A stretch of DNA of 63,996 nucleotides, filler included, from Sphacelaria rigidula (Eukaryota), in the NCBI GenBank assembly GCA_964200075.2. It is 3 parts of 3 records of this genome, joined end to end, with 100 filler letters (N's around TTAATTAATTAA, not from the genome) between each part and the next. Parts side by side here need not be neighbours in the genome. Positions count along the whole stretch, not along the records: positions 21,498 to 42,860 come from CAXNAA020000428.1; 2 more parts are not named here. The stretch is one strand, 5' to 3'. Position numbers and translations under genes: made by a program. The notes below the pieces were generated by a model, which was not told where the DNA came from, made no database searches, and saw nothing but the letters and a program-made list of their open reading frames with translations. Each line of letters begins with the position of its first letter. The stretch's first letter is position 1. Positions 21,398 through 42,960 of the stretch are shown in pieces.

Positions 21398-21497
21398 NNN
21401 NNNNNNNNNNNNNNNNNNNNNNNNNNNNNNNNNNNNNNNNNTTAATTAATTAANNNNNNNNNNNNNNNNNNNNNNNNNNNNNNNNNNNNNNNNNNNN
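21398..21497. other. Artificial contig spacer
   Basis: 100-nt N run with a central TTAATTAATTAA, which gives stops in all six frames. Confidence 0.97.
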
Positions 21498-21870
21498 TAT
21501 TTTGCGGCGTTGTACTGGCGGATACTGGCGATACTGGGTATTTTGCGGCGTTGTACTGGCGGATACTGGCGATACTGGGTATTTTGCGGCGTTGTACTGG
21601 CGGATACTGGCGATACTGGGTATTCTGCGGCGTTGTACTGGCGGATACTGGCGATACTGGGTATTTTTGCAGCCTCGTACTGGCGGATACTGGCGATACT
21701 GGGTATTTTGCGGCGTTGTACTGGCGGATACTGGCGGTACTGGATATTTCAGTGTCTCATACTGGTGCATACTTGCGATACTGCGTAATATGGAGGATGA
21801 CACTGGCGGATACTGGTGATACTAGGTATTATCGCCGCCTGGTACTGGCAGATACTGGCGATATTGCGTG
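21498..21870. repeat. 41-bp tandem repeat (TATTTTGCGGCGTTGTACTGGCGGATACTGGCGATACTGGG), decaying rightward
   Basis: Units start at 21498, 21539, 21580 and onward. Related units occur at about 22806-22960. Confidence 0.92.
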
Positions 21871-22768: not shown

Positions 22769-23995
22769 TTTCTTTTCGGATTAATGTCACCGGGCATTTC
22801 GCCGAAAAATACCGGCGGATACTGGCGACACTGGGTATTTCGCCACCTCATACTGGCGGATACTGGGGATACTGGGAATTTTTGCCGTCTCGTACGGGTG
22901 GATACTGGCCGTGCCCAGTATAGGGGTACGGGTGATTCTGTACTGGATACTGGCCCCGTACGGGATACGGGGAGCACCTTTGGAAATTTCATAGCACAAT
23001 CCTCAAAAACTGAGACGCTATATCCAGATTTAGTGTATTTAGTGTATTTATTGCCTCTGCTCGTAATATACTTCGAAGTATTGATTTCAGTTTGAAACCT
23101 TTTGTGCGCCATATCTCGAGATAGATAACGAATCAGGTGAAGGTGAGGGAATCTATCGTCTCCCCGTGCTCCAGGGAATGTCCACACCAGAAATCGCCGT
23201 CATCCGCTGAATGTATCGATCGGGGTTTCATATAGATTTTAGTATGGGCACTATCTCCGTACAGTATAGGAATTACTACACATGGGGTTTCATCAACGAG
23301 AAAATATTGGCCCAGACTTTGGAGTAGATGCGAACCTTCCCCTTTATTAAACGATTAATGCGATATGCAGATCACGGCCCAACTCGTCTGTGTCGATGAG
23401 ATATCGCTTTAAGAGCGTCATCCCGTTTTTAGGCTGGTCCAGCGCTCCTACAATGGTACATATAATAGTACTACCCAAAACAACCCTGAGAGAAAACAAC
23501 GATGTATACGATATATGTGGAATGGTTTGTCAGCTAACCGGTCGTCGGGGGTCCTATGAGTATCCAGCCCCGTGTTCTCGATCGAATCAATCCCTAGTGT
23601 TGTGGTGATCGTCCAGGCTCAGTTTTCGCAATTTCTTCCCCTTCATTGCGCTACAGCCGAAAAGCGTTCGGTGCTTTTGGCCCAAAAAAATTAGGTAATG
23701 GCACCTCCGCCACGGAAACGAGGTTATACCCCGTATCGCCCCGACAGCACAAAGCTGGAAGGTACTTCCCGTGAACAACATGCTTCTGGTTTCAAGGTAT
23801 ACCGACTCCAGAACTTTTGAGTAAAAAGAAAAAGCCTGCACGAAAAATCCTCGATAAAGTGAATTAATCGTGTTCTTGAATGGTCGACTTCTGTAACAAG
23901 TCCCAACATGCCAAACTGATGAACTGATCACGTTGTCCACGAACTACAGCTACAACTACAGGACTTCGATCTCGTGGCGAACACCACCTATCTCG

Positions 23996-26900
23996 TCACG
24001 TACATACCTTGAAAGCCACCTGCAGATCGTGAGACCCGAGTTTTCCCTCCACCACGTTGAGCGATCGCCGGAAAAACTCCGCGGCTTCACCCGCGCGCCC
24101 CATCCCGTGCCCACCCTGTTCACGAATCACCTGTCCGATTTCTTGTAAGGTCACCGCTACGCGCATATCCTGCTCCCCCAAACATGCCTCTTGGATTTCC
24201 AGCACTCGCCGCAGGAAACTCTCGGCCTCGGCTCTCTGTCCCGCCTCCCGAGCCCACCGGGACACGCTGCACAGCGTATCAGCCACACGCATGTCAGCTC
24301 CCAGATTTTCTTCCTCGATCGCGAGTGCTCGCCGAAGCAAGTCCGCCGCCTCAGCAGCTTGCCCCTGCTCGTGAATACAGTGACCCAGCTCGTGCAACGT
24401 GTTCGCAACGCGCATGTCTTCCTGTCCGACCTCTTGCTCCTCAATGGACAGCGCTCGCCTCAGCAACTCCTCCGCCTCACCTAAGCGCCCGCACCCGCGA
24501 ACGCACGCCCCGAGCAACTTCAGCTTGGACGCCACCTCCACGTTGGGACCCATCGCCTCCTCGATGGCCAGCGACCGGCGGTAATAGACCTCTGCATCCC
24601 GCAGCTTACCGCTTTCGTGCATACATCTTCCCAGCTCACAGACCGTTTCGCTCACCTGTGAAGCGCACGAGATCAAGCCCACGACACAGAGCACAGAGCG
24701 CACAGCACACGATCGGCAGCGTATAGCTGGTCAAAGTACAAGTGCATCATTCCACATCTCTGGTGGCTATCCCTGGTGGCCGTTGGGCTGAGCGCTAGTA
24801 AGACGCACCCTCCACGCATCATCCATCATGTAGCCGTAGCCGTAGTCATCCGGCTATATGTCGACCGCTTCAGCCAAAGAACATGCACAAACAACTATAC
24901 GTGATTTTCTTTGGTCGTGCTTGGTCAATCACATCACGAAATCACATCGTGGAAATCCTCACGACAGCACACTCGCAGCATAACTTACACTTCCCTCGTG
25001 GTGGCAGTTAAAATTGTTGACTATACACTATACACTGTACGCTGTACACTGTACACCGTACGTTTCTTGTCTATTGCAACTATAGACCATTTTTTGTCCA
25101 AGGTGTGTACAGTATACACGCCCTCATGTTTGAAACTCGTGCTATGCACCACACCAGTACCGGTGCTCCCCCGCATATACGGAGCTGACACAACATGACT
25201 GCAGATGAAGATAATTTCTCATCAAAATGGGTTAGGGTTAGGGTCGTCACCTGTACGTCGTCGGGGTCAAGCTTGGCTTCCATTATTGTCAGGGCCCGTC
25301 GCAGTAAACCCTCAGCCTCGCGGGGCCTTCCACTCCCCCTCACGCATCGGGCCAGCCAGCCTAGCGTCACCGCCACCTGTTGGGTTGAGGTAGATCGACA
25401 TGGTTTTGAGTGGAAACAGGTGGTGACCTAGAATACAAAGTATGACTGTTCCTGCGCGGTCCTTACCCTGACAAGAGTCTTTCACGAGAGATGTGACAAA
25501 TGCACGAACCGTCCTTAGGTACATCGGTGTACGTCGGTGCACAGGATAGAAAGTACGAATTGTTGTCAGCATCCATTTGTGATCGCCAAGCTAGAGATAC
25601 TTGTTGCGAACGGTGTTGTGGGCATCTAGCTTCACTCCCTATTTGGCATCCAAACCATGCGAACCATGCATGTGCTGCGGTGCTCCAACCCCACCCTGAG
25701 AAAGAACCAACGAACCCAACCTCGATTGCCGGTACATGGTATCCAGTACACAGTACACAGCTTCGAAACACACCTTCACGTGGTCAGGCCCCAGAGCGGC
25801 TTCTCGAATCTCCAGAGCCCTGGCGAAGAACGCCTCCGCCTCCTTGGGGCGTTGGTCGTCTCGAATGCACCGGCCCAGCTCTCCCAAAATTACGGCTACC
25901 TGCATTATGACGTCACCAGCAGGAGCGGAGGAGCTCGCAGTTACAACCCCACACGCCACATGGTGCTCGTCGTACTTTTTGAAGAAGGAGCAAAACCAAA
26001 AATGGTTCACGGTTGGCTCGAAATGCATGCTGATGTTAGTACGGAAATGGATACAGACTCTAACCTCCCCCTTCCTCTGCATCGCCGCGCATACGTTACA
26101 GTAGCATGTACTACACACTGCACACGCAAAACCAGTCACCACCAGTCCATGGAGCGAATACTATGTAGCCATACGGCATAGCTGAGGGCGTTGAAGGCTA
26201 CTTATTGTTGTACCTTGGGGGGAAAAAACGCATGTAGCCCGACAGAATTGGGATAGTGTCAAACGGTTGCGTCATGTCACCACCGTGTAACACACGTACC
26301 GTTATCCCATCTTTTGAGGAACTTCTTCACTGTACCCCACTGCACAGTAATGTCGCCAACTAGAGATGGGTTGCAGTCACATGTAGTCATGACATTATAC
26401 AAAATTGAAAAATATATATGGACAATGAACGCTCTCCGACCGCGGGGTCATTTCGCGACGGTCCACTGCCTGCACAACCTAAATGCTGTAAATGGCAGTG
26501 GGGAGTAATTGGTCGATTCATTGGTTGATTGACCGACTCTTCAACATACCGCACCTGCAAGTCTTTCGGGCCTAGCTTGCGTTCCTTGATATCTAGGGCT
26601 TGCTGTAGGAAGCCTTCCGCTTCCTTAAAACGCTTTCGATCACGAAGACAGCGACCGATCTCGTGTAATATTTTAGCCACCTCAGCATCGATGGGTCCCA
26701 GTTTGACCTCCTGGATAGCCAGCGCCCGCTGCAGCATATCTTCGGCTTCGGCATACCTTTCACCGGGACCCGCGCGGACACAGCGACCCAGCTTGGCAAG
26801 CGTAATACCCACGGCCATGGCATCAGGTCCCAGCATTGCTTCTTCGATGGACAGAGCCCGGCGGTAACAGGCCTCTGCCTCCGGCCAGTGATCACTCTCT

Positions 26901-29900
26901 TCAATGCAGTCGCCCAAGTCATGCAGCGTCACGCACAGACAAACATCCTCGGGATGCAGGTGATCCTCTTCGATCGCCAGCTTTCGCCTTAACAGCACCT
27001 CCGCCTCCGACATCTTTTTCTCCTTTCGAAGACACTCGCTCAGCTTTCCCAGGGTTACGGCAACCTTCGTGTGCGGGTACGAGGGTTACGTAGTGAACAC
27101 TTAGGGGACATGATTGATAATTGCACGGGAACCTTCTTCGTCGGAGCGCAGGTGACTCGACCTCCACGGAGAAGCCGTGGATCAACGATCAACAACACTC
27201 AACTGTCGGCGAGAGCCCGATGGCCAACCTCGACGATAGAGCAAACATGCCAAGGCATGTTGTACACGATATACGCAGAATGGATTGAATGGGGAAGTGA
27301 ATTGTGATACCCATAATAATGTTTGATCGATACGGGCGAAGTACGACAAAATGCAACCCGTCACGCACAGGACAGTATCCACATTATAAATAATAGTGAT
27401 ATACGCTGCCACACCAATGCAAACGCGAGGATCTCAGGATGTCAGCATGGCAGCAAACAAACCGAAATCACTCCACTCCCAGTCCGTTTTGTGCACCTCA
27501 TCTCACCTCCATCAGATCACGCCCCCTCTTTATGCATCATACATCATAATGCACCATCATACATTATGGGGGATTGGTGCCATGCCGGGGGGTAGATAAA
27601 TATGAATATAAAGGTAAAGATAAGGATAAGGATATATGCTCACATGCTCTGGTGAAAATCTCAGCGTCTTTGTACCATCCGTACCTTGGGGTGGGCAACT
27701 CCAAGTTTGTTTTCTTGTATGGCGAGCGCCCTGCGGAGGAGATTCCCTGCCGAAGCCGAGTCGCGCACGCAGAGGGCCAGCTCGAAAAGTGTGCTAGCCA
27801 CGCGCATAGCATTTGCTCCTAGTTTGGTCTCTCTGATGGCTAGAGCTCGCCGCAAATGAGTCTCCGCTTGGGACCGCTGCCCTGCTTCTCTCAGACATCG
27901 CCCAGTCTCAAACAGAGTGAGCGCCAGCCTGACTGCATCAGGGCCCAGCTCTGCTTCTCGAATCGCCAACGCTTTGGCAAAATATTGCTGCGCGTCACCA
28001 GGTCGCCCCGCTTCTCTCAGGCACCTCCCAAGTTCGTGGAGAGTTACCGCGAGGTGGACCTCATCGAGCTTCTTTTCCTCAATGGCCAGCGCTCTTTTGA
28101 ATAGGACTTCCGCCTCACCAGGCCGGCCTGAGCCTCGCACACACCACGCGAGTTCGTGAAGAGTTATGGACAGTTGAAGATCGTCTGGATCGAGTCTTTC
28201 CTCCCGGATACGAAGAGCCTTTCGACAAATCCCCTCCGCCTCTCCAGGCCGTCCCATCTGGTCGTCACGCGTAGTCATAATCATGCATAGTTGGGCGTTT
28301 GCAACACCGGGAGGATTGAGTAAAAAACAACGTTTTCATGGACGTGACAAGCTCACTCGTGCCATCTCTGCTACTTTGTGTAGGGCTCTGAGATATACTC
28401 CCTCCCCTCCCCCGAAAGGGATGCGCGGTCAATGATCAAACGACCGAGACAAGCAAGGTAGGAGTAAGCCGCCCCCTGCCCCCACCCCCGGAAGGGAAAG
28501 GGGAGGGGACCCAGCGGCCCGAAGCAAATACACTAAGGCCAAACCGGAAACGGGAAGAACAATCAAGCAAGGGAAAATAGAAGTAAAAACGGCGGAGAGA
28601 GAACAATAGATAAAAGGAGACTGGATAATAATTGGGAAAGGAAGTTGAGAATAGGATCGTGGAACGTGTGTGGATTCGCCACAGACGAGCGCAAAAGAAT
28701 AGAGATGGCCCAACAAGTAAGTAAACGTGACCTAGATAAATTGGAAATACAAGAGTCATGGGAGAAAGAGAGGGTGGAAATAGGATGCAAGGTTGAAGAG
28801 TATGCACGGGTAGGGAAAAAGTGGAAGGGATAGAAGCCCAAGAGTAGGGGAGCGGGGGGGGTAGGATTCTTAGTCAAGGAATACCTGTGGCAGAATAGAA
28901 GTGATCGACGACACCAAATTCGATGAGAGCATATGGATAAGGGTACCAGGAGAGCGGGGAACGAAGTATTTCTTCGTATGGAACATCTACATGCCCTCAG
29001 AATGGAGGGGTAGGGAACACGATATACAGCGGAGGTTCGGAGAGATAGCAGCAGATGTACATACGTATAGTGGGAGATTTCAATGCAAGGGTTGGAAAAG
29101 CAGGTCAACCGGGTGATATCATTGGGCAATACGGGAAGATAAAAAGAACACGAATGGCGTAGAAATGCTCAAGTTCCTTGAGAATGACGAGATCAAGACG
29201 CTGAACGATAAGGCACGAAAACCAGAGGCGCAATGGACATGGACTGGAAAATACGAAGACGAGAGAGAACGTTCCGTTCTTGACTATATAGTGGTAAAGC
29301 ATGGTTAAATAGTTAAGAAATGGAAGTACATGTATGCGCGGAGGGCGTGGGAACTACAGATTATTGCCATATATGGACAAAAAGGCAACATACGAGAGCT
29401 CGAACAAATAGGCGGGCGGGGTCGGAAGTTGTACAAATGAAGAATCGATGGCCAAAAATGCAGCGAAATCTTCCGAGCTGTTGAATAGCGTAGGTACAAC
29501 TGATACCGAAATGGGAAGGGATCGGGTAGGGGCGAAGATTACTCAAGGATGGGAAGAGTTGGTCAAGAACACAGCGAGTAAGGTCATAATGAAGAAATTG
29601 ATCGTATACGACAGAGCAGCAAAAGGTGGGACGAGGAAGTAAAAGGCTATAACAGTAAGGAGCGAGATCCACGCAAGATATACGGAGTAAAACTACGGCA
29701 GAGTGGGAGGAATACACCCAAGTTCGAAAGGGCGTAAAAAATATGGTAGAGAAGGAAGAGGAGGGAGTATGGGAAGATGTAAGAATAAAACAAATGTGTG
29801 TAGGGATAGAGAGGATAATGGGAAATCAGGTAGGAAAGATGGACAAGTGCATTGCTACACTCCGGGCACAGAACGGTAAAATGGTCAGTAGTTCGAAGGA

Positions 29901-32900
29901 GAAGAGAGAAGTGCTAGTCGAGCACTACCGTAAACTAGGAACACCAAAAACGAACACGAAGTTCGATACGGAATTCGAAGCAGACATCAACGGGTGGGCA
30001 GAGGCTAATGTAGAGGCGTCAAAACTGGAGGATAGTGGCTCCACAGAATAGCAGAGAGAGTGTACCAGACACGAAGTGAAGGAGTGTGTAGCGAAACTCA
30101 AGAAACAGAAATGCAGCAGGGGTAGAAAAAATATAGTGGATAAACCTCTAAAGTACGGGGAGAGGGGATGATAACGATGGTGGCTATGCTGTATAACTGG
30201 ATCTGGGAAAACGACAACACACCTACGAGGTGAAGAAAGGGAGTAGCAGTCAACCCCTTCAAGAAAGGAGACAAGGCTGACCCAGGGAATTATAGAGGGA
30301 TAACGCTGCTGAGCACGGTAGGGAAAACATTGTGTAAGGTTCTGAACGTTAGTGGGAACGACGCTAGAAAAATAAGTCAGCGAGGGGCAAGCAGGTTTTC
30401 GACTAAACAGTACTTGCGTAGATCATGTGTACACGCTAGGTAAGATTATTCAAGGTACGAAAGGATTCGTGTTCGTGAGTATCCGTGCGAGCGACGAGAC
30501 ATGGAACATTGTAAGACAGGAAGGGTACGGGCTACACCAAGCTACACCATGCTACACCAAGACGGCACGTGTATGACCTAGCCAAAAAATAAAAATACAA
30601 GTGATGAGAACCCCCCTACGGTTGCACCTCTCTCACTACTTGCTCACTAGATACTATACACATCGTGACAAAAAATCATAACTATGACGTCATCAGATAC
30701 CTCACTCGATGCTGCGGTACTATACAGTTGTCGTACTGCCAGCTCACCTCGCGGATACATCTCGCAAGCTCATGCAAAGTCAGTGCCACTTGAAGATCCT
30801 GCGACCCGAGATTTGCCCCTCTAACAGCCAGCGCTCTCCTGAACAAAATTTCCGCCTCGCCCAGCTGCCCCATCTCTCGAACGCAGAGCCCGATCTCATG
30901 TGTCGTGAACGCCACCTGAACGTTGTCCGGACCGAGGTTTGTCTGTTCGATCTCGAGCGCCCGCCGAAACGACACCTGCGCAAGCTCAGGCTTTCCCAGC
31001 TCCCAGTCACACCTTCCAAGCTCGTGGAGTGTGACAGACACCACCATGTCACTAGGACCGAGCTTTTTTTCCCTGATTGCTAGGGCTCTCACAAAGTACT
31101 GCTTGGCATCGGCCGGGTTCCCCGCCTCGCGGACACATCTACCGAGCTCGTGGAGGGTCAGAGCGACGTGTACATCATCACTTCCCAGCTTGGCCTCTCG
31201 AATAGACAGCCCCCTCTGGAAGAACTTCTGGGCAGAGCCAGGGTCGCCGCTCTCTCGAAGACAGATGCCGAGCCAATCCAGAGTGACCGCTACCTGCACC
31301 GGCGGCACCCCGCCCAGAGACAACTTGGCCTCTTCTATCTCCAACACTCTCGCGAAATACTGCCGAGCGTCTGCCGGGTGCCCCGCCTTCGTGTAAGACG
31401 AACAACACAGCGATAATATCCAAGAGCTCAAACGAACATCGGATTTGGTTCGCGCACGAGGGGCATCGTCCTCTTTTATCGCCATCGCCATCGTCATTTT
31501 TGTCGACAGCATACGGGACGAGCAAATATGACTGCCACTCGCATCACATGAAAATAAATTGCACGCGTCTGTCTTCTTGCAATGTACAGCTCGGAGGAGT
31601 CACGGAGTAGATTATGTTCCTTCTCCCAGCTGGATGTTACGCTGAACGAGGAGTGTCTCGAACTAACACGGGAGCGCGAAGCTAGGACGCTGAAACAAAA
31701 ACGCCTGCACCACGCCCAAGGATTATCTCCCGCACACGACTTCCGTGTCTCGTGTTTAATTTTGGATCCGCTGACCACGCGGGCAGCATACATATACAGA
31801 ATCTGTGGCCTGCAGGTCCAGCATGCTGTGCTAGCATGTCGTACGTTTGAGGGGAGGAGAAGGATACGACTAATTCTCGCGGCCTTGTGGGCTAGCATAT
31901 GAAGCCTTTCAAGCCTTTGGACCAATCACACCCTGGATAATCACGATGGATCACGTTGTAAAAAGTGTACTGCGTACAGTATGGAGTATTTTGTCAATTA
32001 GACGCAATAGAATATGCAGTACGCAGTACTCTCTTCGAAAGTGTAAATGTATTGCATTGTCATCATCCAGGGTGTGCTTTCTTTGGGCTAGCCCAAAACC
32101 AAAAGGGGTTCGAATTAAGTGTGCATGCTCATCGTCCCCTCACCTCCCATACGCATCTTCCGAGCTCGTAGAGCGTAAAAGCCACCTGGGCACGACGGCG
32201 CGAACGGACGGCAGACAGCAGCACAAGATAGACAGCAGGCAGCACAAGATAAGAAACAAGTAGCATCAAGTCAGCACCCAGCATCCTTCATCAAACAATG
32301 CTCCCGCCGTTCAAGACTGCATACTGTACTGTGATAGCATGCCCATACCACAGGACCCATCTTAAAGCTGCGGAAGGAGTACTCGTACTCAAGTTCCCAA
32401 ATGTGTCAACATGTGTCGAGATGTGAGTGACGACAATCCGTGCCGTTTTGACTTTATTTTTCCTACCTGCCTTTTGCTTTCATACGACACTTCACGACAC
32501 TCCGACAGGAAGTGCCATACATATCCATCATCAAGTAGTACCACACTCGGAGCTATATTCCGTGAAGATCGGAAATGGTTTGTCTAACCATTAACCACTT
32601 AAATCGTACATAGTGTGCGAGCCAAACAGCCCCACCCCAGCAAAGGGAGCCCCGCTGAAGGAGCCGTGCCGGAGGCGCATTTTGACGCGATTTGGCTTTA
32701 CTAGAGCTAAAAATGCGTTAAATTTGGGACAATTTTTAAGTGCAAAGGCATAGCGCACTTGGCTCGGAATTTCGGTTTGAAAAAAATAGCCCATTTTAAA
32801 AATTTTAATCGAAAAAAAATAGGACCGTCTTTTCTCGTCTGTTTAATTTTTTGATCGAAAGAAAATATAACTGAAGTGCGAGCCATCGATGGTCAAGGCT

Positions 32901-35900
32901 GGCCGCGAGCTCAAGCCAGGCAGCGTGGCAGAGCACCATGGGTGTGCTGTGCACCGCCTGGAGTCGACAGCGAGAATACACCTAAAGCCTGGTGGTCCGT
33001 CCTCCTCGTACGCTTAATCTTGTCTCAAGTCTTCAGTCGGTGTACCTTCTCCTCAGGGGGAGTCCTCCCCCGGTGGCTGCGGCACATGGTGAAACACCCA
33101 TGAGGCAGTGTGTAAGACGTGGCTGTCTCTGGAAATGACAGAAAATAAAGCAACTCATTTGAGACTGTCATCCAAATGCAAGAAAATCAGTAGGCTTCGG
33201 GTCGAACAATCTTAGCAGGATGCAGCTCATCCTTCATGCGACTCGCCTAACAAACACGGCGCTTCGCGCTTGGTGANNNNNNNNNNTGGTCTTATGACTA
33301 TGGCATGCATGATCATGAGTACACCCCCTCCTCCGGTGGCTGCGCTGGTGCCGGCTCAGACGCTTTCGCCCCCGCGTGATCTGTGCTGTCACCGCTGCCA
33401 TGTTCTGAGCCCAATAACATCGCCGATGGCCTCCGTGGTGGGGCGGGGGTTGCGCTCTGGCATGTCCTCTGCGTCTCTTTGTGCGCTGGAGTGTGTCCTG
33501 CAGCCCAGGACTGCTGCTGCATGTTGTGTATTGTCTGCTGTAGCTGTGTGCTGTATGTGGCATACGTAGCCAGTAACGGTGAATAATGGTTTGAAAACCA
33601 TTATCCATTTTTTTCATATAACCATTACCATTATTGCCATCATGCCACTACCATTATTGCCATCATGGAGATAATGACCAGTTAAAACTGGTACCATTTC
33701 CGGGCTCTAATATTCCGAGCCCCAACCGGGGAGGGGTGCTTTGAACACCTTCAAAACGCGCGCTTGTTCGAGTTGACAGATACAACGCAGTCAAACCCCT
33801 CACTCAACGGTAGTGAAAAAAAACAAACAGAAACGTATCATGTACGAAGTATCATGTATTATGTATCATTTATCATGTACCGGAGAAAGGACGGACAGTG
33901 CAGCGCAGTACAGTACGATACAACCCAGTACAGTGTTGGTACCGTAGATCGAGCGAAAATAACCGCGGGTTGATGAATTGAAAAAATCGAATTGATGTTG
34001 GTGTTTGTGTTGGTGACTAAAGAAACAATGAAAAGCAGCTTGTGCTGCGAAATTGCCTGTGGACAGCCGCGCATCCCGGAGGGAGAAGGTATGATAGGAA
34101 TATATACTGTTAATACTCTACATATGACGTCACTCAATCACCTAATCGGTCGGTGCCTCAAGAGTACCTCCAACCGTTGACCGCGTAGATTTTTGGATCT
34201 TTACTGAAGGAGCATTTGCATATCAAAGTCAAGTAATCGACGTCCACATTGGTATACATGGACTCAAAATGACTTTCTCCGCAGCCAAGGGGTTCATTGA
34301 GCGACTCCTCTGCCAGTTTCGGAGATTTTGATTCGTGTTTGGCCCCAAGAATTCGGGGGGGGGGGTGAAGAGGGAAGCTACGTCACCGTTAGACTCCGTC
34401 AGTAGTTGCCGTTCTCACCTGGTCGCTGTCCCGTCCTAGCTTTGCCTCCTCAATCGCTAAAACTCGCTGAAGCAACCCGATTGCCTCTTCGGCGCGCCCG
34501 GCCTGTGCAACCAGGATTCAGGAAGAGTACGCAGAGCATGGAAAAGATCAAGAGCATCAACAGCAAAAGTTGTCACGGAACGAAATGCTTGTGGATGCTG
34601 ATGACCAGGATCCGGATCTACATCTGACTCAAATACAACTACACACCTATTCGAACCTGCAAAGTCAAGCCCATCGAAAAAAACTTGAAGCCACCAAGGG
34701 TCTCATTTTCTCACCTCCCACACACACCGTCCAAGGCCATAGAGCATAAAAGCCACCTGGCCATCGTCAGACGCCTTCTTGGCCTCTTCGATCTCCAGCG
34801 CCCTTCGATAAAAAGGCTCCGCCTCCTTCGGCCGGCCGTCTTCGCGTATACACCGCCCCAGCTCGTAGAGGGTTACGGCAACCATGACGTGGAACTCTCC
34901 AAGCCTCGCCTCCTCGATCTCCAGTGCCAGCCGGAAGTGCTTTTCGGCCTCCGCTGCTTGCCCCTTCTCGCGCATGCAGCAGCCAAGCATGTGCCTCGCA
35001 AAGGCAACCCGGGGATGTTCTGGACTCAGTTTGGCTTCTTCCCGGGATGCCAGCGCTCGACGGCACAACGATTCCGCCTCTTTATTCCGCCCTGTTGTAC
35101 TGGAGCAGAGGGCCAGGATGAACAGCGAGGAGACATAATCTAGGCTGCTCATAGTGGTCGTATCGCCCGCAGAGTCAGATCCAGATCCAGAGCCATCGTC
35201 CTGTTTCCATCGGTCCATGGATGGGTCGTCCAGAATTCCTTCCAGCTGACGACGCAAGTGCGCTTCCTCCTTCTCTCTCCCACTACTGGCGACACTGTCA
35301 ATGGACACGCGCAGAGCACTCGCCACGTGGAGGAGACCCACTGTCCCCGGGGCGGCTTTGTGCGCATCTAAAACCCTCTGCATTACCTTCGCCGCCCCTT
35401 CGTGGTCACCTTCCACCTCGTGCAGCAGCGCAACCGCTTCCACCGAGGGAAGGTACGTGGCGTCGCTCTTGTCTAGCTTGGCAAGAGCCTTCTCGTAAGG
35501 CCGACTTCGACGCCACCCGTCGCCACCCACGCGCTCAACAGCGTTCCACAATCTTACGAGAGCGAAAACGTCGTGCGAGATGGTTGCTCTCAGGGAGGAA
35601 ATGTGCTCGGTCCACCGGGTGATGACCGCCTGGCGCAAGTCTTCTCTTTGAAGGAGGCGTTCCCTGGCGTCCGCAGCGCAAGCCTTTGGCAAACTGAACG
35701 TTCCCTTCCCTCGGGCATCCAAGACGCCCCAGTGTTCCAGGGCCGCGACGGCTGCCTCTAGCGCCTGTTCGTTATCGCCAGTACTGGCAATCGTTCCGCG
35801 GTCATCCACTACGGCCTCATTGTGCACAAGGGCGTACACATCCTCCATACTGAAAACATGCTCGTCGGGCATAATGGCGGCGGCGAGATACAGATCCTGC

Positions 35901-38900
35901 TGCGTGCTGTTTCCTTGCCCGAGAGCCAAGCCAGTCAGGAAAATAGCAACTCGCCGCATAGTGTCTTCACTCCTAGTGCGGCTATTTGGATTCACCTTTG
36001 GCCTGACCTTCGCCTTGCTTGCCCGTGACAGCTCTTGCCGGATTTGTGCAGCGGCTTCCGACCATAACCTCTCATCGGCGCACCTCCGTAGATCGCTCCA
36101 CCTCGCCACGTACTCCAGATCCAGGGGCGAACGGCCACAGAGCTCGACCAGCTCACCCGCCGCTGTGGGAAGCGGGTGCGGAACCTCTGCAGCATTTCCA
36201 AGCAAGGCGTACGCCTCTTGTTGCGAGAGTTTGTCCACTAGCAGGGGCTTCCCATCCACTTCAACCACCAAGTCGAGATATCTGGTCGTCATCAAAATCC
36301 AAACTCCCGTCTTCTGCAGTTCCGCCACCACTCCTCCATCACAAACGTCGTCGGCTACGACGAGACACTTGTTCTTTCTCCCTCTTGTGCCATCCACAAC
36401 ATCCCCAACGTATTCCAGCAGCTGCTCCGACCATGTGGGCGTGGGAGCGGGTCCGACCTCGCGCGGTGTACCCTGTTGACTTTGGCAGCTCATGGACACG
36501 TGCTGGATGAGCGCGGGAAGGCGATCCTTGGCATTGACGCCGATGCTCAACCACACGATGCCGTCGCAGAAAAATTCCAGCACCTCCTTGCTCCTCACGA
36601 TCTGCGAAGCAACGGTAGTCTTGCCCGAACCACTGTCCCCCACCAGTCCCAGCACCTGCGGTCGTCCATCGCCCCTGAAAGTGTCGTACACGCTGTCAAT
36701 GATGTCACTTCGCTCCACGTGCCAATCCTTCCGAGCTGGCGTCTCGTAGGTGGGCGCGCCCGTGGAGCAAGAGCTTGCCGGCACCGCTTCGCCCTGCGCG
36801 TGCATCTGCGTGTAGTGTGGTACGTCGCCACCGAAGTGAGGGCGGATTGTTAGGAGTGTTACAGTATTCGAAATTTCAAATTTCCGAGAAACTTCCCATA
36901 CCCACAAAGTGGTGAACCAACCTCGTCGTCAACCAGAGGAACACAGCACACCGCACGAGGAAATGGCGCGTGACAGTACAACGGACCAACCCTGGGGCTG
37001 TACTGTGCCTTCTCGAAACAAGATAAAAATCTGTTCGCACACAGCACACAGACTTCTGCCCACGACGACCACTCAGACGAGTCTGTGCCTCGATGCAAGC
37101 CATATCTGCGCACAGCTTCGAAATGTGATGGTCCCAGCAGTGGTGACCGGTCCAACGTCTGTGTGCTGGATGGTGTAGTAGAGGAAAGACGCCACAAGGA
37201 AGCACATCACCAATAACACCTACACCTACACCTACACACCGAGCACCGAAAAAACACACGCAAATACTCACCATACTCGCCATTTACGCAAAATTACTCC
37301 ACCGCTGACCCTTTTTATTAGTCATCTACCCTCTGCACACAACAGTCTTCGTCTCTGTCGGAAATCCGTTCATTATCGGAGAAGGGTGGCCGCGTGCATG
37401 TCGATCTCAACCAAAATCGAGCCGTTCGCAACTTGAATGTGTGCTTGTTTTAGGTTTTCTCCTTGGAATCTGACCAAATCGACTACATAAAGGCACAACG
37501 TGCTCAGGTGATCAGCAGCTACGACTTGAGTAATGTGTCTCTTGTTCGCGGGGGTAGTGAGGACTGAGGACTGGGGCCCCCACTTTGGCGTGTTGTTTTG
37601 TTGGCTTGTGTGTCGCATCTTTGCACATGCCCCGCGTTCATGTTCCCCTTCGAGCTTACAGATTGTCAGTTTGCGCTAACAGATTTTTGAGAAAATAGAT
37701 TTTTCTGCCTAGGTGAGACAAGGGCTAAGGGCCTGGGGGCATGTCTTATATTTTTCATGACCAGCAAGAACAAGCGGCGGAATTGAGAAATTCGGATCTG
37801 ATAGGTCCACGTAATTCATGTTCCTAATTGCGTCACTTCATTTTCTTTGTTTTTGTGCTTTTTTTTTCGAAAAGGTCTACAACAACAGTGCCGCGTCTTA
37901 GCACACCATTTTTCGACAAAAAAAGTGCCATGGAAAACAAGAATTTCGATCTGATAGGCCGTGATTTCAACGGCAGTCAACATAAATTACGATCGTTAGA
38001 ATTTTCCCCTATGAGATCGGGGTTTTTCTTTTCCGCCGCACATTCTCCATCGAAAAATGATGTGATAAGACTTGCCCTAAGGGCGCCCTAAGGGCGTGTC
38101 TTAGCACCCTTTTTTTTTCGATCGAAAAAGTGCGGTCGATTTTTTTTCGCCGATCTGATAGGTCCACCACATTTATGTTCCCAGAAGGCTTCAACTCAAA
38201 CTTATCACTAGCGGCGCGCGGAGAAGAATGCATCGAGGTAAAAAACAATTGTTTTCGATCGAAAACATGCGGTCGAAAGGCACAAAGCGGCACTTGACTC
38301 CTATCTTGCAGACCACCACGCCAGATAACACCTGTTCACAGGACCATGCAAACCCCATCCAACTTAATCTCAGCTAGCACTGTAACCCTGCAGCATAGAG
38401 CTTGAGATGAGCCCACAGATAGATACACTACAGTAGTTGGTTGTGCTTTGTTTGTTTTTGTTGGCGAAAACTTGCGCATCTTCTCTCATGGTAGGGACCA
38501 GCGACGGAACTGCATGGTACGGTGGGCAACCGAGTTGCGCGCACGCTCATGGACAGTGCAGGCAGCACAAAGCTGCACGTTGCTAAAGTCCTCTTCACGT
38601 CGCATTGTAAGCAGAGAGAGCTGATGGTCCTGGGCTGTCTGCACTGCACGTTGCCCGCTTCTCTCTGATACCCTCCTGAACGAAACACGCACACACGCCA
38701 CACTGCTTGCAAGTAGTGCAGACGGTACAGAGTGTCTGTACTGTAGACGAGTGACCATGTGCCGTTTCACGAATTTCACTGTATTTTATCAATTGAAAGC
38801 TTGAAAATCCATCTGGACCCAACTGCATCAAAACGAGAAAATTTCGCTGAGATCGATTCCATCACCCTATTTTTTCGATCGATAAAAAACAACTGCGAAG

Positions 38901-41900
38901 ACACGCCCTAATCGTACCGTAGCTTGTTTGAGCGAAAATGCGGCGCAAAAAACTGCCATACAAAACGAACGCACGTCCAGGTCATATTAATAATACTCAT
39001 ACGAGCTGGGCTGGCAGTGAATCCCACATTCTCTCTCCTCACCACAACTCTTCGAATTTCCCAAATCAGCGCGACCTGAGCATATCGCTGTGAACTGCAG
39101 ACTAAGCTGGTGACATGAAGCACCGCCGCTGCTCAATTGGCGCACTTTTGGCGATGATGTCATTGTACTGCATTGAGTACCGAGTACATGCCAAGTCTTT
39201 GTGTGATAGCGTGTCTGGAGACGTTTCGTTTCAGAGAATGCGGGGGAATTACGATAGTAAATTCCGCCGCACAGGCAGGCGAACACCTGATATGCGCAGC
39301 CGAAAGCAGACTGACTGGTACTTTACTGCTGCAAGATGGGATCAAGGTCGTCAACAGCTCCATCATCATGCGAGAGAACCTCCGAGCCAAGTGTCGTGTA
39401 TCACCGCACGAGGGAGAAGTACTACTTGAAACTGCGCTATACCCCCTCCAGAGGCAATACCGTCACCGAAAAATCGAGGCTCTTTGCAACCCAGAGGTAC
39501 GAGAGATAATGCCCGATTAGTATGCACAAAAAAAGTTTTTGTCATGTCGGGATTCGAACTCGTGACCTGTGTAAGTTCGGGCTGTTGTAACAATTTGACC
39601 ACCGGGTTCACACAAAAAGTGCGACGCTAAGCCCAATTTTACGGATTTTCAAGGATGTGGTTGACGCGAGTGCCCGTATGTGTCGGAGCGTTGTCATCGT
39701 TGTTATCCATTTTTGAGGAAGTTAAAGCATTTTTCCTGTTTTTGCTGAAACTTAAACTCGCTCTTCCTCTTTTTTTTCATTCCCCGTGACACCACTCACA
39801 GGGTTTCGCGTATTGATAATGAAAATGTCGTGTCAAATTTTCAGCGCCCAACTCTTGAATTGCCAAAAAGCATCTCAATTCTTCGTTTCAAAATCACTGA
39901 TGGCCGGCCCAGCTCGTATTGTAGTGTGATGTGCCATGATGGAAACGTGTGCTCGACATTTCACATTTTCACACGTCGGACAGATGATGATCCGTCTGAA
40001 AATTAGTTTTTCTCAGTATAGTGATGGGGATCATGATCCGTATCATCTGACCCTACTTTTCCATGTTTGCTCCTTACGGTGCCGAACGCTGAGCATGCCG
40101 AGTAGTGCAAATGTTGCGCTTTGGCTTTACTGATGACTCCGCTGTCACATATTTTGTGTTTTTGGACCGACGCACTCGAGAGTCTTCTTTCATTAGTTGT
40201 TTCAGACAGATCATGATCTATCCGACGTATGCACATTTTAGCGCATGCCCCGGCACTTACAGGCACTCAGACTCCACGCCTGACACGTTCAGAGGAACCG
40301 TAGCCACAGTACACCAGGTAAGGCGCACTTTTCCCCAGAGGTGTTGGAGGGATATTGGCCGAGCAGCAGCCATCTGTCTGAAAGATTGCTTCGATTCTCT
40401 GCCAAAAGACGTCGGTTTGATGTGATGCATGTCCAACAACAGACAATGCTGCTCCAGTTTGGAATCGATTGACACCAAACCAAACATGTCATCAGCGAGC
40501 TGATGAAGAACTACAGTACCCTCCGGGCTATCTATACATGGGGTGCCGCATCGGACGCAGCGTATGGCGTGATCACCATGACCGAGAGAACAAGTATTAC
40601 ATACGAGTATAATATCAGGAGGCGGGGGATGCTATTTGTCGTTGGTTGCTAAAAGGCCAACTCTTATGGGAGCGTTCAGAATTTTATATTGCAATAATTT
40701 TGATCGACCTTTTTTTTCTTCCTTTGCCGTAGTTGTGTATTTTGTGCCCGTTCACCATGACGACGAAGAAGAAAAAAAAACTCCTCTGAAATTGTTGCAA
40801 AATAAAAATTTCAAACGCTCCCATAAGAGTTGGCCTAAGGTCCACCGCATCTTCTCGCTGCGGACTGTGGACTTGGAATTCGCTCGGACCCAAAACGCAC
40901 GAAAGGAACGAATTCGCACCGGACCGATTCCAGGTTTCTTTGGGGCTGAAAATATTATGATAAGACACGCCTCGAAAAGTGGTTTTGACAGATAGGTGGA
41001 GCCCACGACCGCTCGCCGAATGAGTATGAATGTTTCTGCTATCAACTATAATATCACGTAGCGAAGGTGATACAGTACGATACTACACGAGCACTGGATA
41101 GTGCATACTGCAATACTACTGTAAGCAATACCGAATGGACATGACGCCGTCTGCGGATTCCTCCACAAACAACCCCCCGCACTGTCAGCAAGTGCCGTAA
41201 ACTCCCTTTCACCCGACGATCTCTATGATACGATGCGTGGTACCAAACTTGTTCACGATTGTACTGTGACTTGTTTTCCTATCATAGGAAGTAGAGCGAG
41301 TCAAGTCCAACAGTGCAGTCAACGTCAAACAACTCTCAGTTACAGTACAGTACGGTGCCGTACTTGTATGCGGCGCGCCCGTGGAAGGTTTTGAGAAAAT
41401 GGAGTGCAAGTTTCTTTTGTCAATTTTCTCATCATCGTCTCGGGTGATATTCGTACAAAACAGACCGTATACACCATCACTATTATAAACATTACTCTTC
41501 AGCAAGGTCTTAACGTCTCAAACAAGGAAGCACAATCTAAACTCAAGACACGGACTACAACGAAAGGTGGTTGCGCAATTTCGCCGACCTTGTGACTTAC
41601 GGTTCGTAGCTTACACCCTGCGGCGTCGTTACCAGCCGGACCCACGGTCACCTCCAGTTTATCGACCCGGTCTTGCAGGCTGACAATGTCGCTCAGCGTT
41701 TTGGAACTCCAGCTTTCGGCGAACAGGAACACCTGGTTCAAGCAGGCCTCCACTGGCTGCGCGTATGATGGAGCGTCGGACTTGGAGCGTCGGCTCTTCA
41801 CAATGGCACAAGATATAACGCTCACGCACGTTTCTCGCAATTTGTCCAGCTCCAGTTTGTGGTTCTCCAGAACTTCCGACCTGGCAGTGATTGCCTTGAG

Positions 41901-42047
41901 CAGTCGGAACGACTCCGTGAAGGTGGGAAATTCTTTGCCGAAGTCACGTACAAATGCCACCCCTCCCACAGAAGACCCTATCCTTGTGGACAGCTCGGCA
42001 GCTTCAGATGCCACCTCCAGTCCCTCCACGGAAACATCGGCAACCAT
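23996..42047 (-). CDS. NLR-like protein: N-terminal helical domain + NB-ARC + about 25 TPR (42-aa) repeats
   Basis: Predicted exons, all joined by phase-0 introns: 42047-41601, 36805-34715, 34502-34419, 32185-32144, 31386-30748, 28257-27685, 27064-26555, 25899-25774, 25376-25251, 24655-24008 (or reading through to the stop at 23996). The TPR consensus VAxTLxELGRCxRExGxxxEAExxxRRALxIxExKLG continues in register across every TPR-array junction. The 3' end is uncertain. Confidence 0.9.
28400..30460 (+). mobile_element. Degenerate non-LTR retrotransposon (LINE): APE endonuclease and start of reverse transcriptase, in an NLR intron
   Basis: Frameshifted fragments LRIGSWNVCG, IQESW, GGVGFLVKE, GDFNARVG and SVLDYIVV are endonuclease motifs. 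KKGDKADPGNYRGITLLSTVGK, QAGFR and CVDHVYTL are early RT motifs. There are many stops and frameshifts. Confidence 0.9.
34715..36805 (-). CDS. NB-ARC (STAND NTPase) exon plus first TPR repeats
   Basis: P-loop GDSGSGKTT, RNBS-A-like FFCDGIVWLSIG, Walker B CLVVADDVCD, RNBS-B ILMTTR, RNBS-C VDKLSQQEAYALL and GLPL-equivalent CGRSPLDL, followed by TPRs. The exon is 697 codons between a CAG acceptor and a GTGAGA donor. Confidence 0.93.
38092..38908. mobile_element. PIF/Harbinger-type MITE (817 bp); related copies 21153-21397 and about 56110-56720
   Basis: The TIR is GGGCGTGTCTTAGCA / TGCGAAGACACGCCC with TAA on both sides. The internal sequence matches the other two copies. Confidence 0.85.
41601..42047 (-). 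CDS. First coding exon of the NLR-like gene; predicted helical bundle resembling the MLKL N-terminal domain
   Basis: 149 codons run from the ATG at 42047 to a strong GTAAGT donor in phase 0, compatible with the NB-ARC exon. The sequence is amphipathic-helical (FPTFTESFRLLKAITARSEVLENHKLELDKLRETC). Both the link to the NB-ARC exon and the domain call are inferred. Confidence 0.65.
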
Positions 42048-42796
42048 GAATATCGGACCAATACTGCGGCAAGACCTCGAGTTGCCTTTCAAGGGTAAAG
42101 ACAGCAAGTGGATCGAGCAAACTTCGAGTTTCAGTGCCTGCCTCTGCTTTCGGAAACTGCAGATCATGTGCTGTAGGGTATTACATACGGTTACTACCTG
42201 ACAGCACGGGTTCCTCGGACCTGTAAAGTGGAAGATTTGGCTATACTTTCGTTACATGAAACATGATGATATCCGATAACCAAGACCTTGGGAATGCTTT
42301 CCATCAAGTTGAGTTGTAAATTTGGTGGTGGGGACGTTCGCCTTATATGATGGCTCGTACAGGGGGGGCAGTCAGTAGTGATAGGGTGGCAATATGTTGA
42401 TTTTTCATCAACGGCTCAGGAATTGCACAGAAGGTGAGGTTTAAACGGTCGTACAGAACAGCAGCATCTTTGTTGTTCTCTACTTGCTGCCTGTAAGAAT
42501 GTTACGTATACATGACAAGCAGATAATGATGTAGACGGCGCTTGATGTTACGACAGCAAGCCGTTCCATGCTTGTTCGTTTGGCAATGCTGTACTGCACT
42601 ACTGTTGTGTAAGCAGCACCCACAACAACAGTGAGTGTCCGATCCCATGGAACTGATTCAATGGTTGGGAGCTAATATCCACGAGCATTGTCTTCGAGGA
42701 CAAGTGTAGGAGTAAAATAGTAGTACTACTCGTACAGAGTATGAGTATCAATTTTGTATGACACGAGAATGTTGAACGGTTGTAGGTACAGTACAT

Positions 42797-42860
42797 GTTG
42801 TTGTTGTTGTTGTTGTTGTCTTCACATTAAAAACCGTTCCGATATCTGCGCGGTACATTG
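42797..42860 (-). mobile_element. 3' end of a non-LTR retroelement with (CAA)n tail; second copy at about 5174-5225 on the plus strand
   Basis: The reverse complement, ATGTACCGCGCAGATATCGGAACGGTTTTTAATGTGAAGACAACAACAAC, matches 5174-5225 ATGTACCGCGCAGATATCGGAACGGCTTTCAATGTGAAGACAACGACAAC. Confidence 0.7.
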
Positions 42861-42960
42861 NNNNNNNNNNNNNNNNNNNNNNNNNNNNNNNNNNNNNNNN
42901 NNNNTTAATTAATTAANNNNNNNNNNNNNNNNNNNNNNNNNNNNNNNNNNNNNNNNNNNN
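42861..42960. other. Artificial contig spacer
   Basis: Identical N/TTAATTAATTAA/N linker. Confidence 0.97.

Follow-up and report, generated by a model that had tools for sequence, protein, structure and literature searches.

A possible MLKL-like helical head domain spliced to an NB-ARC-TPR receptor in the brown alga Sphacelaria rigidula

A window of 63,996 nucleotides from Sphacelaria rigidula (GenBank assembly GCA_964200075.2) was analysed; it consists of three joined parts, of which positions 21,498 to 42,860 come from CAXNAA020000428.1, and all positions below count along the whole window. An initial annotation, made from the DNA alone, had proposed that a 149-codon stretch on the minus strand encodes an MLKL-like cell-death effector domain fused to an NB-ARC-TPR protein, and this fusion is now supported by a splice joint, by matches to the Pfam family MLKL_N (PF22215) in 23 of 35 members of a head-domain family, and by a profile comparison with PDB sequences. 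The explanation that we regard as likely, taken as a whole, is that this stretch (exon A) is the first coding exon of a minus-strand gene of more than 18 kb, with many exons and a STAND/NLR-type product, and that the brown-algal head family to which it belongs is a remote relative of the MLKL_N bundle, within the broad class of fungal HeLo-like and plant RPW8/CC heads. Individually weak lines of evidence from sequence comparison and structure prediction converge on a head that would be a four-helix bundle of the MLKL/HeLo/RPW8 class on an NB-ARC-TPR receptor.

The coding part of exon A (447 nt, Table 1) is free of stops, begins with an ATG at 42047-42045, and is followed directly after its last codon by the donor GTAAGT; it lies within a stop-to-stop frame of 250 codons (41499-42251), and the G+C content is 0.563 across 41600-41999 against 0.44-0.48 in the flanks. 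On the other side of the intron, a large minus-strand frame (34703-36928) contains the acceptor cgcag/ATGCAC with its AG at 36807-36806, and exon B therefore begins at 36805 and continues the 447 nt of exon A in phase 0. Sequence and spliced contigs thus agree with the initial annotation that this is a separate 149-codon exon, 4.8 kb upstream of the NB-ARC exon and with a phase-compatible donor.

Eight sequencing runs from two studies were available, four of which were guessed to be RNA; X1, X2, X8 and X5 were mapped on 33300-42850. The joint 36805/41601, by which a transcript connects exon A to the NB-ARC exon at exactly the predicted borders, was present in contigs of all three RNA-like runs (X1, X2 and X8, from both studies); it skips 4795 nt, and its ends are CT..AC on the plus strand, that is, GT..AG on the strand of the gene. 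X2 and X8 each yielded one long contig (8933 and 8950 nt, respectively) matching 34416-34501, 34714-36805 and 41601-42088 with nothing between, and in X1 one contig of 6529 nt stops at 36805 and another, of 111 nt, bridges 36805/41601. A second joint in contigs of all three RNA-like runs, 34501/34714, skips 212 nt and likewise has GT..AG ends. X5, from the same organism, behaves as genomic DNA, with an even depth of ~27-30x over exons and the non-repeat parts of the intron; none of its contigs carried either joint, and they run unbroken over both exon borders. As X1, X2 and X8 hold spliced copies without a counterpart in the DNA run, these three were treated as RNA or cDNA.

Exon B encodes an NB-ARC domain above the Pfam cut-off (PF00931, E = 2.6e-15, 56.8 bits against a cut-off of 23.5) and TPR_12 repeats (E = 1.2e-27, 96.3 bits), and it keeps the P-loop GDSGSGKTT, the Walker B motif LVVADDV and the sensor (M)TTR in alignment with its relatives. 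Its best long match was a protein of Scytosiphon promiscuus (36% identity, E = 6.2e-201); the full-length product of the gene itself was not recovered in the exon B protein search. The borders of exons B, C and D take account of three letters compatible with either side of the joints. All three exons are in phase 0 with GTGAG-type donors, and C and D together make up one 42-residue TPR unit (126 nt). The loose end at 34416 in the RNA contigs has an exact counterpart at 32153-32182, and the transcript extends ~5.8 kb past 34416; tblastn with four NB-ARC-TPR proteins located further TPR coding on the minus strand only, down to 23927. RNA contigs join, in one frame, the exon for the head, that for NB-ARC and the first TPRs, and those for further TPRs, and the tripartite layout of NLRs is present. 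The proposed effector-NB-ARC-sensor order is accordingly borne out by splice joints and Pfam as helical head, NB-ARC and TPR.

A word-index search with the exon A product (P0001) returned the open reading frame of the window itself and P0003 (78% identical); among longer proteins (262-2000 aa), the same kind of search gave 634 candidates, none at E <= 0.01. The family was defined with a profile of P0001 and P0003, run with HMMER against 1.84 billion representatives, which gave 38 proteins at E <= 1e-3, three of which reach E <= 1e-10; P0009 has an E of 4.3e-24 and P0010 one of 6.1e-15. Most of these (34/38) are short, with 112-274 aa, and the four long ones run on into ...WHVER...GDSGSGKTT..., that is, into NB-ARC. 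Residues 10-142 of the Cladosiphon gene model P0006, which was found via exon B, also align to P0001 (BLASTP E = 6e-6), bringing to five the proteins in which the head stands directly before NB-ARC; the complete order head-NB-ARC-TPR recurs in P0021, P0038 and P0006. Named members come from Ascophyllum nodosum, Hapterophycus canaliculatus, Ectocarpus sp., E. fasciculatus and Cladosiphon okamuranus, where they are recorded as 'unnamed protein product' or under a gene id. The head-NB-ARC order is a family trait across Fucales and Ectocarpales.

P0001 and 34 of the 38 HMMER matches, leaving out the four long ones, were aligned in 35 rows (alignment A2). The aligned start position is Met in 31 of the 35, and a small-residue-rich N-terminal hairpin (DAA.EAA.LAL.IGS.A.D..SF.A.LGEE.P) is conserved ahead of the bundle. 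At the other end, conservation stops at ...[LMV]V[SR] in 22 rows and unconserved sequence follows. Read-through of a GT(A/G)AG donor would give such an ending; judged by these alignments, the head domain thus seems to occupy its own exon family-wide. The initial annotation had called the exon swappable. It is indeed a separate phase-0 exon with a boundary conserved across the family, but it occurs as a single copy in the window, where all 31 tblastn high-scoring segment pairs from 41 queries fell at 41568-42167 on the minus strand with no second head-domain copy, and there is no sign of swapping.

In a per-member Pfam scan of the 35 proteins, MLKL_N was the commonest match (23 members at E <= 1, best E = 9.1e-6), followed by DUF7792 (5 members), RPW8 (3) and SIKE (2), the others among the 25 families listed of 51 hit having one member each. 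When ten members were scanned singly, MLKL_N appeared in eight, its matches spanning positions ~2-111 of the 142 in the profile from the residue aligned with P41 onward, and P0034 carries MLKL_N (E = 6.8e-5) and NB-ARC (E = 8.2e-12) in one chain. RPW8 (PF05659), at E <= 1 in 3/35 members, scored at best 15.7 bits (E = 0.012) and did not reach its cut-off of 30.4; P0001 gave no RPW8 match at E <= 1, and the HeLo, SesA and Goodbye models were not among the 25 families listed of 51. The family profile gave eight matches at E <= 10 against PDB sequences, of which the top six were all MLKL N-terminal domains (E = 0.01-0.1) matched over bundle helices 3-4, the other two being unrelated (E = 0.6-0.9). 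Language-model features pointed the same way. With P0029 as query in ESM Atlas, the top named cluster (Mucoromycota) scored 0.94 with 203 of 256 features and has MLKL_N in 36% of its members, and nine of the ten best family-bearing matches agree with the top one in family or clan; with P0001, the MLKL_N-bearing Mucoromycota cluster stood at rank 4 (0.89). The nearest clusters were fungal hypothetical proteins and this Mucoromycota cluster, and further rows combine MLKL_N, DUF7792, RPW8 and MCAfunc. We consider remote homology of the head to the MLKL_N class quite probable. Searched as a single sequence, P0001 matched only Dynamitin in Pfam (E = 0.069) and only eS17 among PDB sequences (E = 1.5), and both were treated as noise.

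The structure of the head was predicted with AlphaFold 2. A single-sequence model (predicted local distance difference test, pLDDT, 56.6) was set aside for the fold search, and the model built with alignment A2 reached a pLDDT of 82.4 and a predicted template modelling score of 0.73, with the last 11 residues disordered. It is an all-helical bundle with helices at 7-26, 32-39, 41-59, 64-87, 92-111 and 118-135, the four long ones forming the bundle proper (residues ~41-135), and the sole recurrent family signal attached to it is MLKL_N, then DUF7792 and RPW8; a fold unrelated to four-helix-bundle effectors was thus not what emerged. The initial annotation had given 'about four amphipathic helices'; the model has six, and only three of these are more amphipathic than ~95% of shuffles. 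The residue pattern of that annotation stands from F47 onward (F.LL.AI....EV.ENH..EL..L) but not at its beginning 'P..F', since the proline, P41, sits six residues ahead of F47 rather than three. The head is net acidic (21 D+E against 18 K+R).

The model was compared with 48,161 representative chains by VIA-align, for which a Z under ~13 can reflect an arrangement common among helical bundles. Within this noise range, AtMLKL3 (6ka4) aligned at Z 8.1 with a root-mean-square deviation (rmsd) of 3.0 over 105 residues (model 40-149 on chain 1-173), mouse MLKL (4btf) at Z 7.9 with an rmsd of 2.9 over 93 residues (model 41-138 on chain 2-116), the CC domain of barley MLA13 (9fyc) at Z 7.5 (model 40-149 on chain 2-128), and human MLKL (6ux8) at Z 6.8. 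As such Z values are common for helical bundles, a fold match alone proves little; the MLKL and MLA13 alignments nevertheless use the same N-terminal register as the Pfam match.

Several observations weigh against the interpretation of the head as an MLKL-class bundle at the start of a transcribed receptor gene. The MLKL_N scores range from 11.6 to 25.7 bits (P0029 best) and none reaches the Pfam cut-off of 27, so that by Pfam's own threshold the head is not an MLKL_N member. MLKL_N at E <= 1 was found in none of P0001, P0003, P0009 and P0010 (0/4), the subgroup closest to the window, and P0001, P0003 and P0009 lack a stretch of ~16 residues that is present elsewhere in the family, between the third and fourth bundle helices. 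The AlphaFold and Foldseek comparison that had been suggested for the 149 residues delivered the helical bundle described above, but Foldseek against PDB gave no match at E <= 1e-3, its top rows being unrelated (RNase III, designed repeats) with template modelling scores of 0.2-0.5. VIA-align found eight chains at Z >= 8, with designed helical proteins (Z 8.6-9.1) and CAMP factors (Z 8.3-8.4) at the top. On the transcript side, none of the runs is registered as RNA, and X1, X2 and X8 were taken for RNA because of their intron-free contigs. Finally, exon A has a leader of ~40 nt before the ATG with no in-frame stop between acceptor and ATG, and the DNA alone thus leaves room for an upstream coding exon; it is by homology only, with Met at the aligned start in 31 of 35 members, that an N-terminal extension from such an exon would be ruled out.

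Part of this list would fit a convergent likeness, in which the head is a brown-alga-specific helical domain of other origin that shares only the up-down bundle arrangement with MLKL. The best Pfam score stays short of its threshold, the PDB profile reaches an E of only 0.01, Foldseek finds nothing, designed bundles outscore MLKL in VIA-align, and the conserved N-terminal hairpin has no MLKL counterpart. We nevertheless consider convergence quite unlikely, given that the hmmscan matches in 23/35 members, the PDB profile, the structure alignment and the language-model features agree on both the family and the register (start at ~41), and that the only runners-up among the 25 listed of 51 Pfam families are the DUF7792, RPW8 and SIKE matches counted above.

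For a remote MLKL_N relative, a mechanism can be modelled on plant CC/CC-R resistosomes, fungal HeLo/HELL NLRs and MLKL. By this analogy, the TPR array would keep the protein inactive until a cue is bound, whereupon the NB-ARC would exchange nucleotide and oligomerise; the N-terminal bundles would then cluster, expose a helix and engage a membrane, whose permeabilisation would lead to ion flux or cell death. Whether pore formation or cell death is the function of the head is, by analogy with these systems, close to an even call. The alga probably has 'sensor plus executioner' receptors in the style of plants and fungi. The head might instead, MLKL_N-like or as a plain helical bundle, serve as an adaptor, oligomerisation or autoinhibitory module that recruits a partner or keeps the NB-ARC closed and does no membrane damage of its own. 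The modest amphipathicity (three of six helices beyond ~95% of shuffles) and the net acidic charge would suit such a role, and helical heads of STAND proteins can be adaptors, as are the death-fold domains of APAF-1 and NLRPs. We regard it as unlikely, since the only recurrent signals are MLKL_N, DUF7792 and RPW8, families whose characterised members are generally known as membrane-acting executioners, and since CARD, PYD and DD are absent from the Pfam families listed.

A further point on the unfavourable side concerns the NB-ARC switch. At the site in exon B near GTFSLPKACAADAR (~35560-35590, minus strand) where relatives read Y(R/Q)MHDAH, which we take to be the winged-helix motif named MHD, this gene reads FSLPKAC. 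With this replacement, the nucleotide switch of this member may be impaired, or may function or be regulated in another way. Together with the deletion in the head relative to most of the family and the rapid birth and death of NB-ARC-TPR genes described for Ectocarpus (PMC3341825), the lost MHD-like motif (FSLPKAC against YRMHDAH) could indicate a decaying or non-productive member, transcribed and spliced but with a broken NB-ARC switch and a head that no longer matters. Such decay appears very unlikely for this locus. The frame is open over 149+697+28+14 codons with three verified introns, the P-loop, Walker B and TTR motifs are intact, and the 78%-identical P0003 keeps its frame; moreover, of the five differences between X1 and the window in exons A and B, four are synonymous, the fifth being V333A.

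The NB-ARC-TPR part of the gene resembles known brown-algal members in having NB-ARC followed by TPRs of 42-residue units on phase-0 exons, as in the 126-nt unit made by exons C and D. It differs from them in its head. Zambounis et al. (2012) defined 24 NB-ARC-TPR genes in Ectocarpus, for which the available text of PMC3341825 describes no N-terminal domain, and neither of the best long matches of exon B, P0004 and P0005, has a head, both starting in the linker that precedes NB-ARC. With the head on an exon of its own, 4.8 kb upstream, and with an ATG at the beginning of exon B, automated gene models can take exon B as the start and so drop the head. Both P0004 (Scytosiphon promiscuus, 1232 aa) and P0005 (1259 aa) start within the linker (...AKLAKIP.GTP...WHVER) that follows the head in P0038 and P0034, and gene prediction may have overlooked a head exon in them. 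That many brown-algal NB-ARC-TPR receptors bear an MLKL-type executioner head with a lineage-specific hairpin, encoded by a separate phase-0 exon that often lies far upstream and so escapes gene models, is a tentative generalisation to which we give slightly less than an even chance.

The MLKL N-terminal bundle (PF22215; 4btf, 2msv, 6ka4) is the top recurrent Pfam and PDB match of the head family, and the model overlays on it with an rmsd of 2.9-3.0 for 93-105 residues counted from the start of the bundle, at Z values common for helical bundles. Unlike in MLKL, the head precedes a STAND ATPase rather than a pseudokinase, its scores are below the cut-off, and it carries the extra conserved N-terminal hairpin (~7-39); its activation would presumably come from NB-ARC oligomerisation and not from RIPK3 phosphorylation. 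As in plant CC/CC-R (RPW8-like) heads such as that of MLA13, the helical bundle is directly N-terminal to NB-ARC, but the sensor is TPR instead of LRR and the RPW8 matches are far below cut-off (15.7 against 30.4 bits). ZAR1 and NRG1 are plant NLRs of the CC and CC-R types. Fungal HeLo/HELL NLRs likewise have a helical head of the pore-forming type on NB-ARC/NACHT proteins with TPR, ANK or WD sensors, and NB-ARC/TPR is given as the commonest NB-ARC pairing in Sordariales (PMC12258605).

To our knowledge, brown-algal immunity has candidate sensors (NB-ARC-TPR, ROCO) and no identified executioner. An MLKL/HeLo/RPW8-type head on brown-algal receptors would provide a concrete, testable output step, and would add a fourth major eukaryotic lineage in which a STAND switch is coupled to a membrane-attacking helical bundle. 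If pores do form on receptor oligomerisation, stramenopiles would have resistosome-like cell-death machines, and four-helix bundles would have been combined with STAND ATPases either in the very distant past or several times over. Teng et al. 2023 (Plant J) may already have reported four-helix-bundle N-termini in brown-algal NB-ARC-TPRs. A full-text literature search found nothing relevant linking MLKL, HeLo (among the matches listed) or four-helix bundles to brown algae or stramenopiles; a fungal review among the matches refers to brown algae for exon shuffling alone. The Phaeoexplorer preprint, in its available text, mentions NB-ARC-TPR once, without MLKL or cell death.

The features of the gene are collected in Table 1. 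Given the acceptor AG at 42087-42086, the true start of exon A is probably 42085 (range about 42085-42088). The contigs run ~466-478 nt 5′ of 42088 onto sequence absent from 42089-42850, and X2 and X8 gave no cover in bins 42232-42850, indicating that the 5′ exon or exons lie elsewhere.

Table 1. Coordinates of the head-NB-ARC-TPR gene in the window, with the evidence for each feature
Feature	Position	Strand	Evidence
Exon A 5′ leader	42048..42088	-	AG at 42087-42086; sequence CCCTTGAAAG/GCAAC; contigs up to 42088
Exon A coding part, putative N-terminal MLKL_N-like helical domain (P0001)	41601..42047	-	Open frame; RNA contigs 41601-42088; 38 homologues; model pLDDT 82.4
GTAAGT splice donor	41595..41600	-	Sequence; joint 36805/41601 with GT..AG ends on gene strand
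Intron A-B, 4795 nt	36806..41600	-	Skipped in X1, X2 and X8 contigs; ~27-30x cover in X5
Exon B, 697 codons: linker, NB-ARC, first TPR_12 repeats	34715..36805	-	Pfam; contig cover; motif alignment
Intron B-C, 212 nt (GTGAGA...CACAG)	34503..34714	-	Contig joint 34501/34714 (cut +1); donor and acceptor sequence
Exon C, 28 codons, first two thirds of a 42-residue TPR unit	34419..34502	-	Contig piece 34416-34501; translation AGRAEEAIGLLQRVLAIEEAKLGRDSDQ; donor GTGAGA at 34418
Exon D, 14 codons, last third of that TPR unit (VAFTLYELGRCVWE), then GTGAGG	32144..32185	-	Contig loose end matches 32153-32182
Further TPR-coding stretches (borders approximate)	30706-31455, 27673-28335, 26510-27085, 25669-26073, 25167-25382, 23927-24691	-	tblastn; translations with TPR_12-like 42-residue units

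Runs of N were located at 42861-42904, 42917-42960, 21398-21497 and 33277-33286. The first two lie just upstream of exon A and may hide the 5′ exon or exons (~470 nt). One X1 contig (767 nt, depth 8.8, at 42059-42787) passes the exon A acceptor unbroken into the upstream DNA; it could be an unspliced precursor, an alternative start or DNA carry-over.

Two relatives showed peculiarities of their own. After the shared ...RT, P0003 (153 aa) reads ISHS and a stop, where the window reads VSHK (GTAAGT...); the Ile codon at the donor position means that no GT is present there, so this copy may splice elsewhere or be defective. P0006 (1817 aa) has another, incomplete NB-ARC-like stretch, with repeated TPR blocks following a non-TPR insert, and looks like two neighbouring NB-ARC-TPR genes fused in one prediction.

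The middle of intron A-B (about 38085-40955) is high-copy repeat DNA, where the summed X5 depth climbs from a baseline of ~27 to 71,471-88,789. Repeat-type joints and loose ends are numerous in this stretch, the repeats are also present in the RNA-like runs, and they probably account for the length of the intron. Another high-copy element, at 33300-33618 in the C-D intron and adjoining the N run at 33277-33286, had a summed depth of 10,646-170,834 in all four runs.

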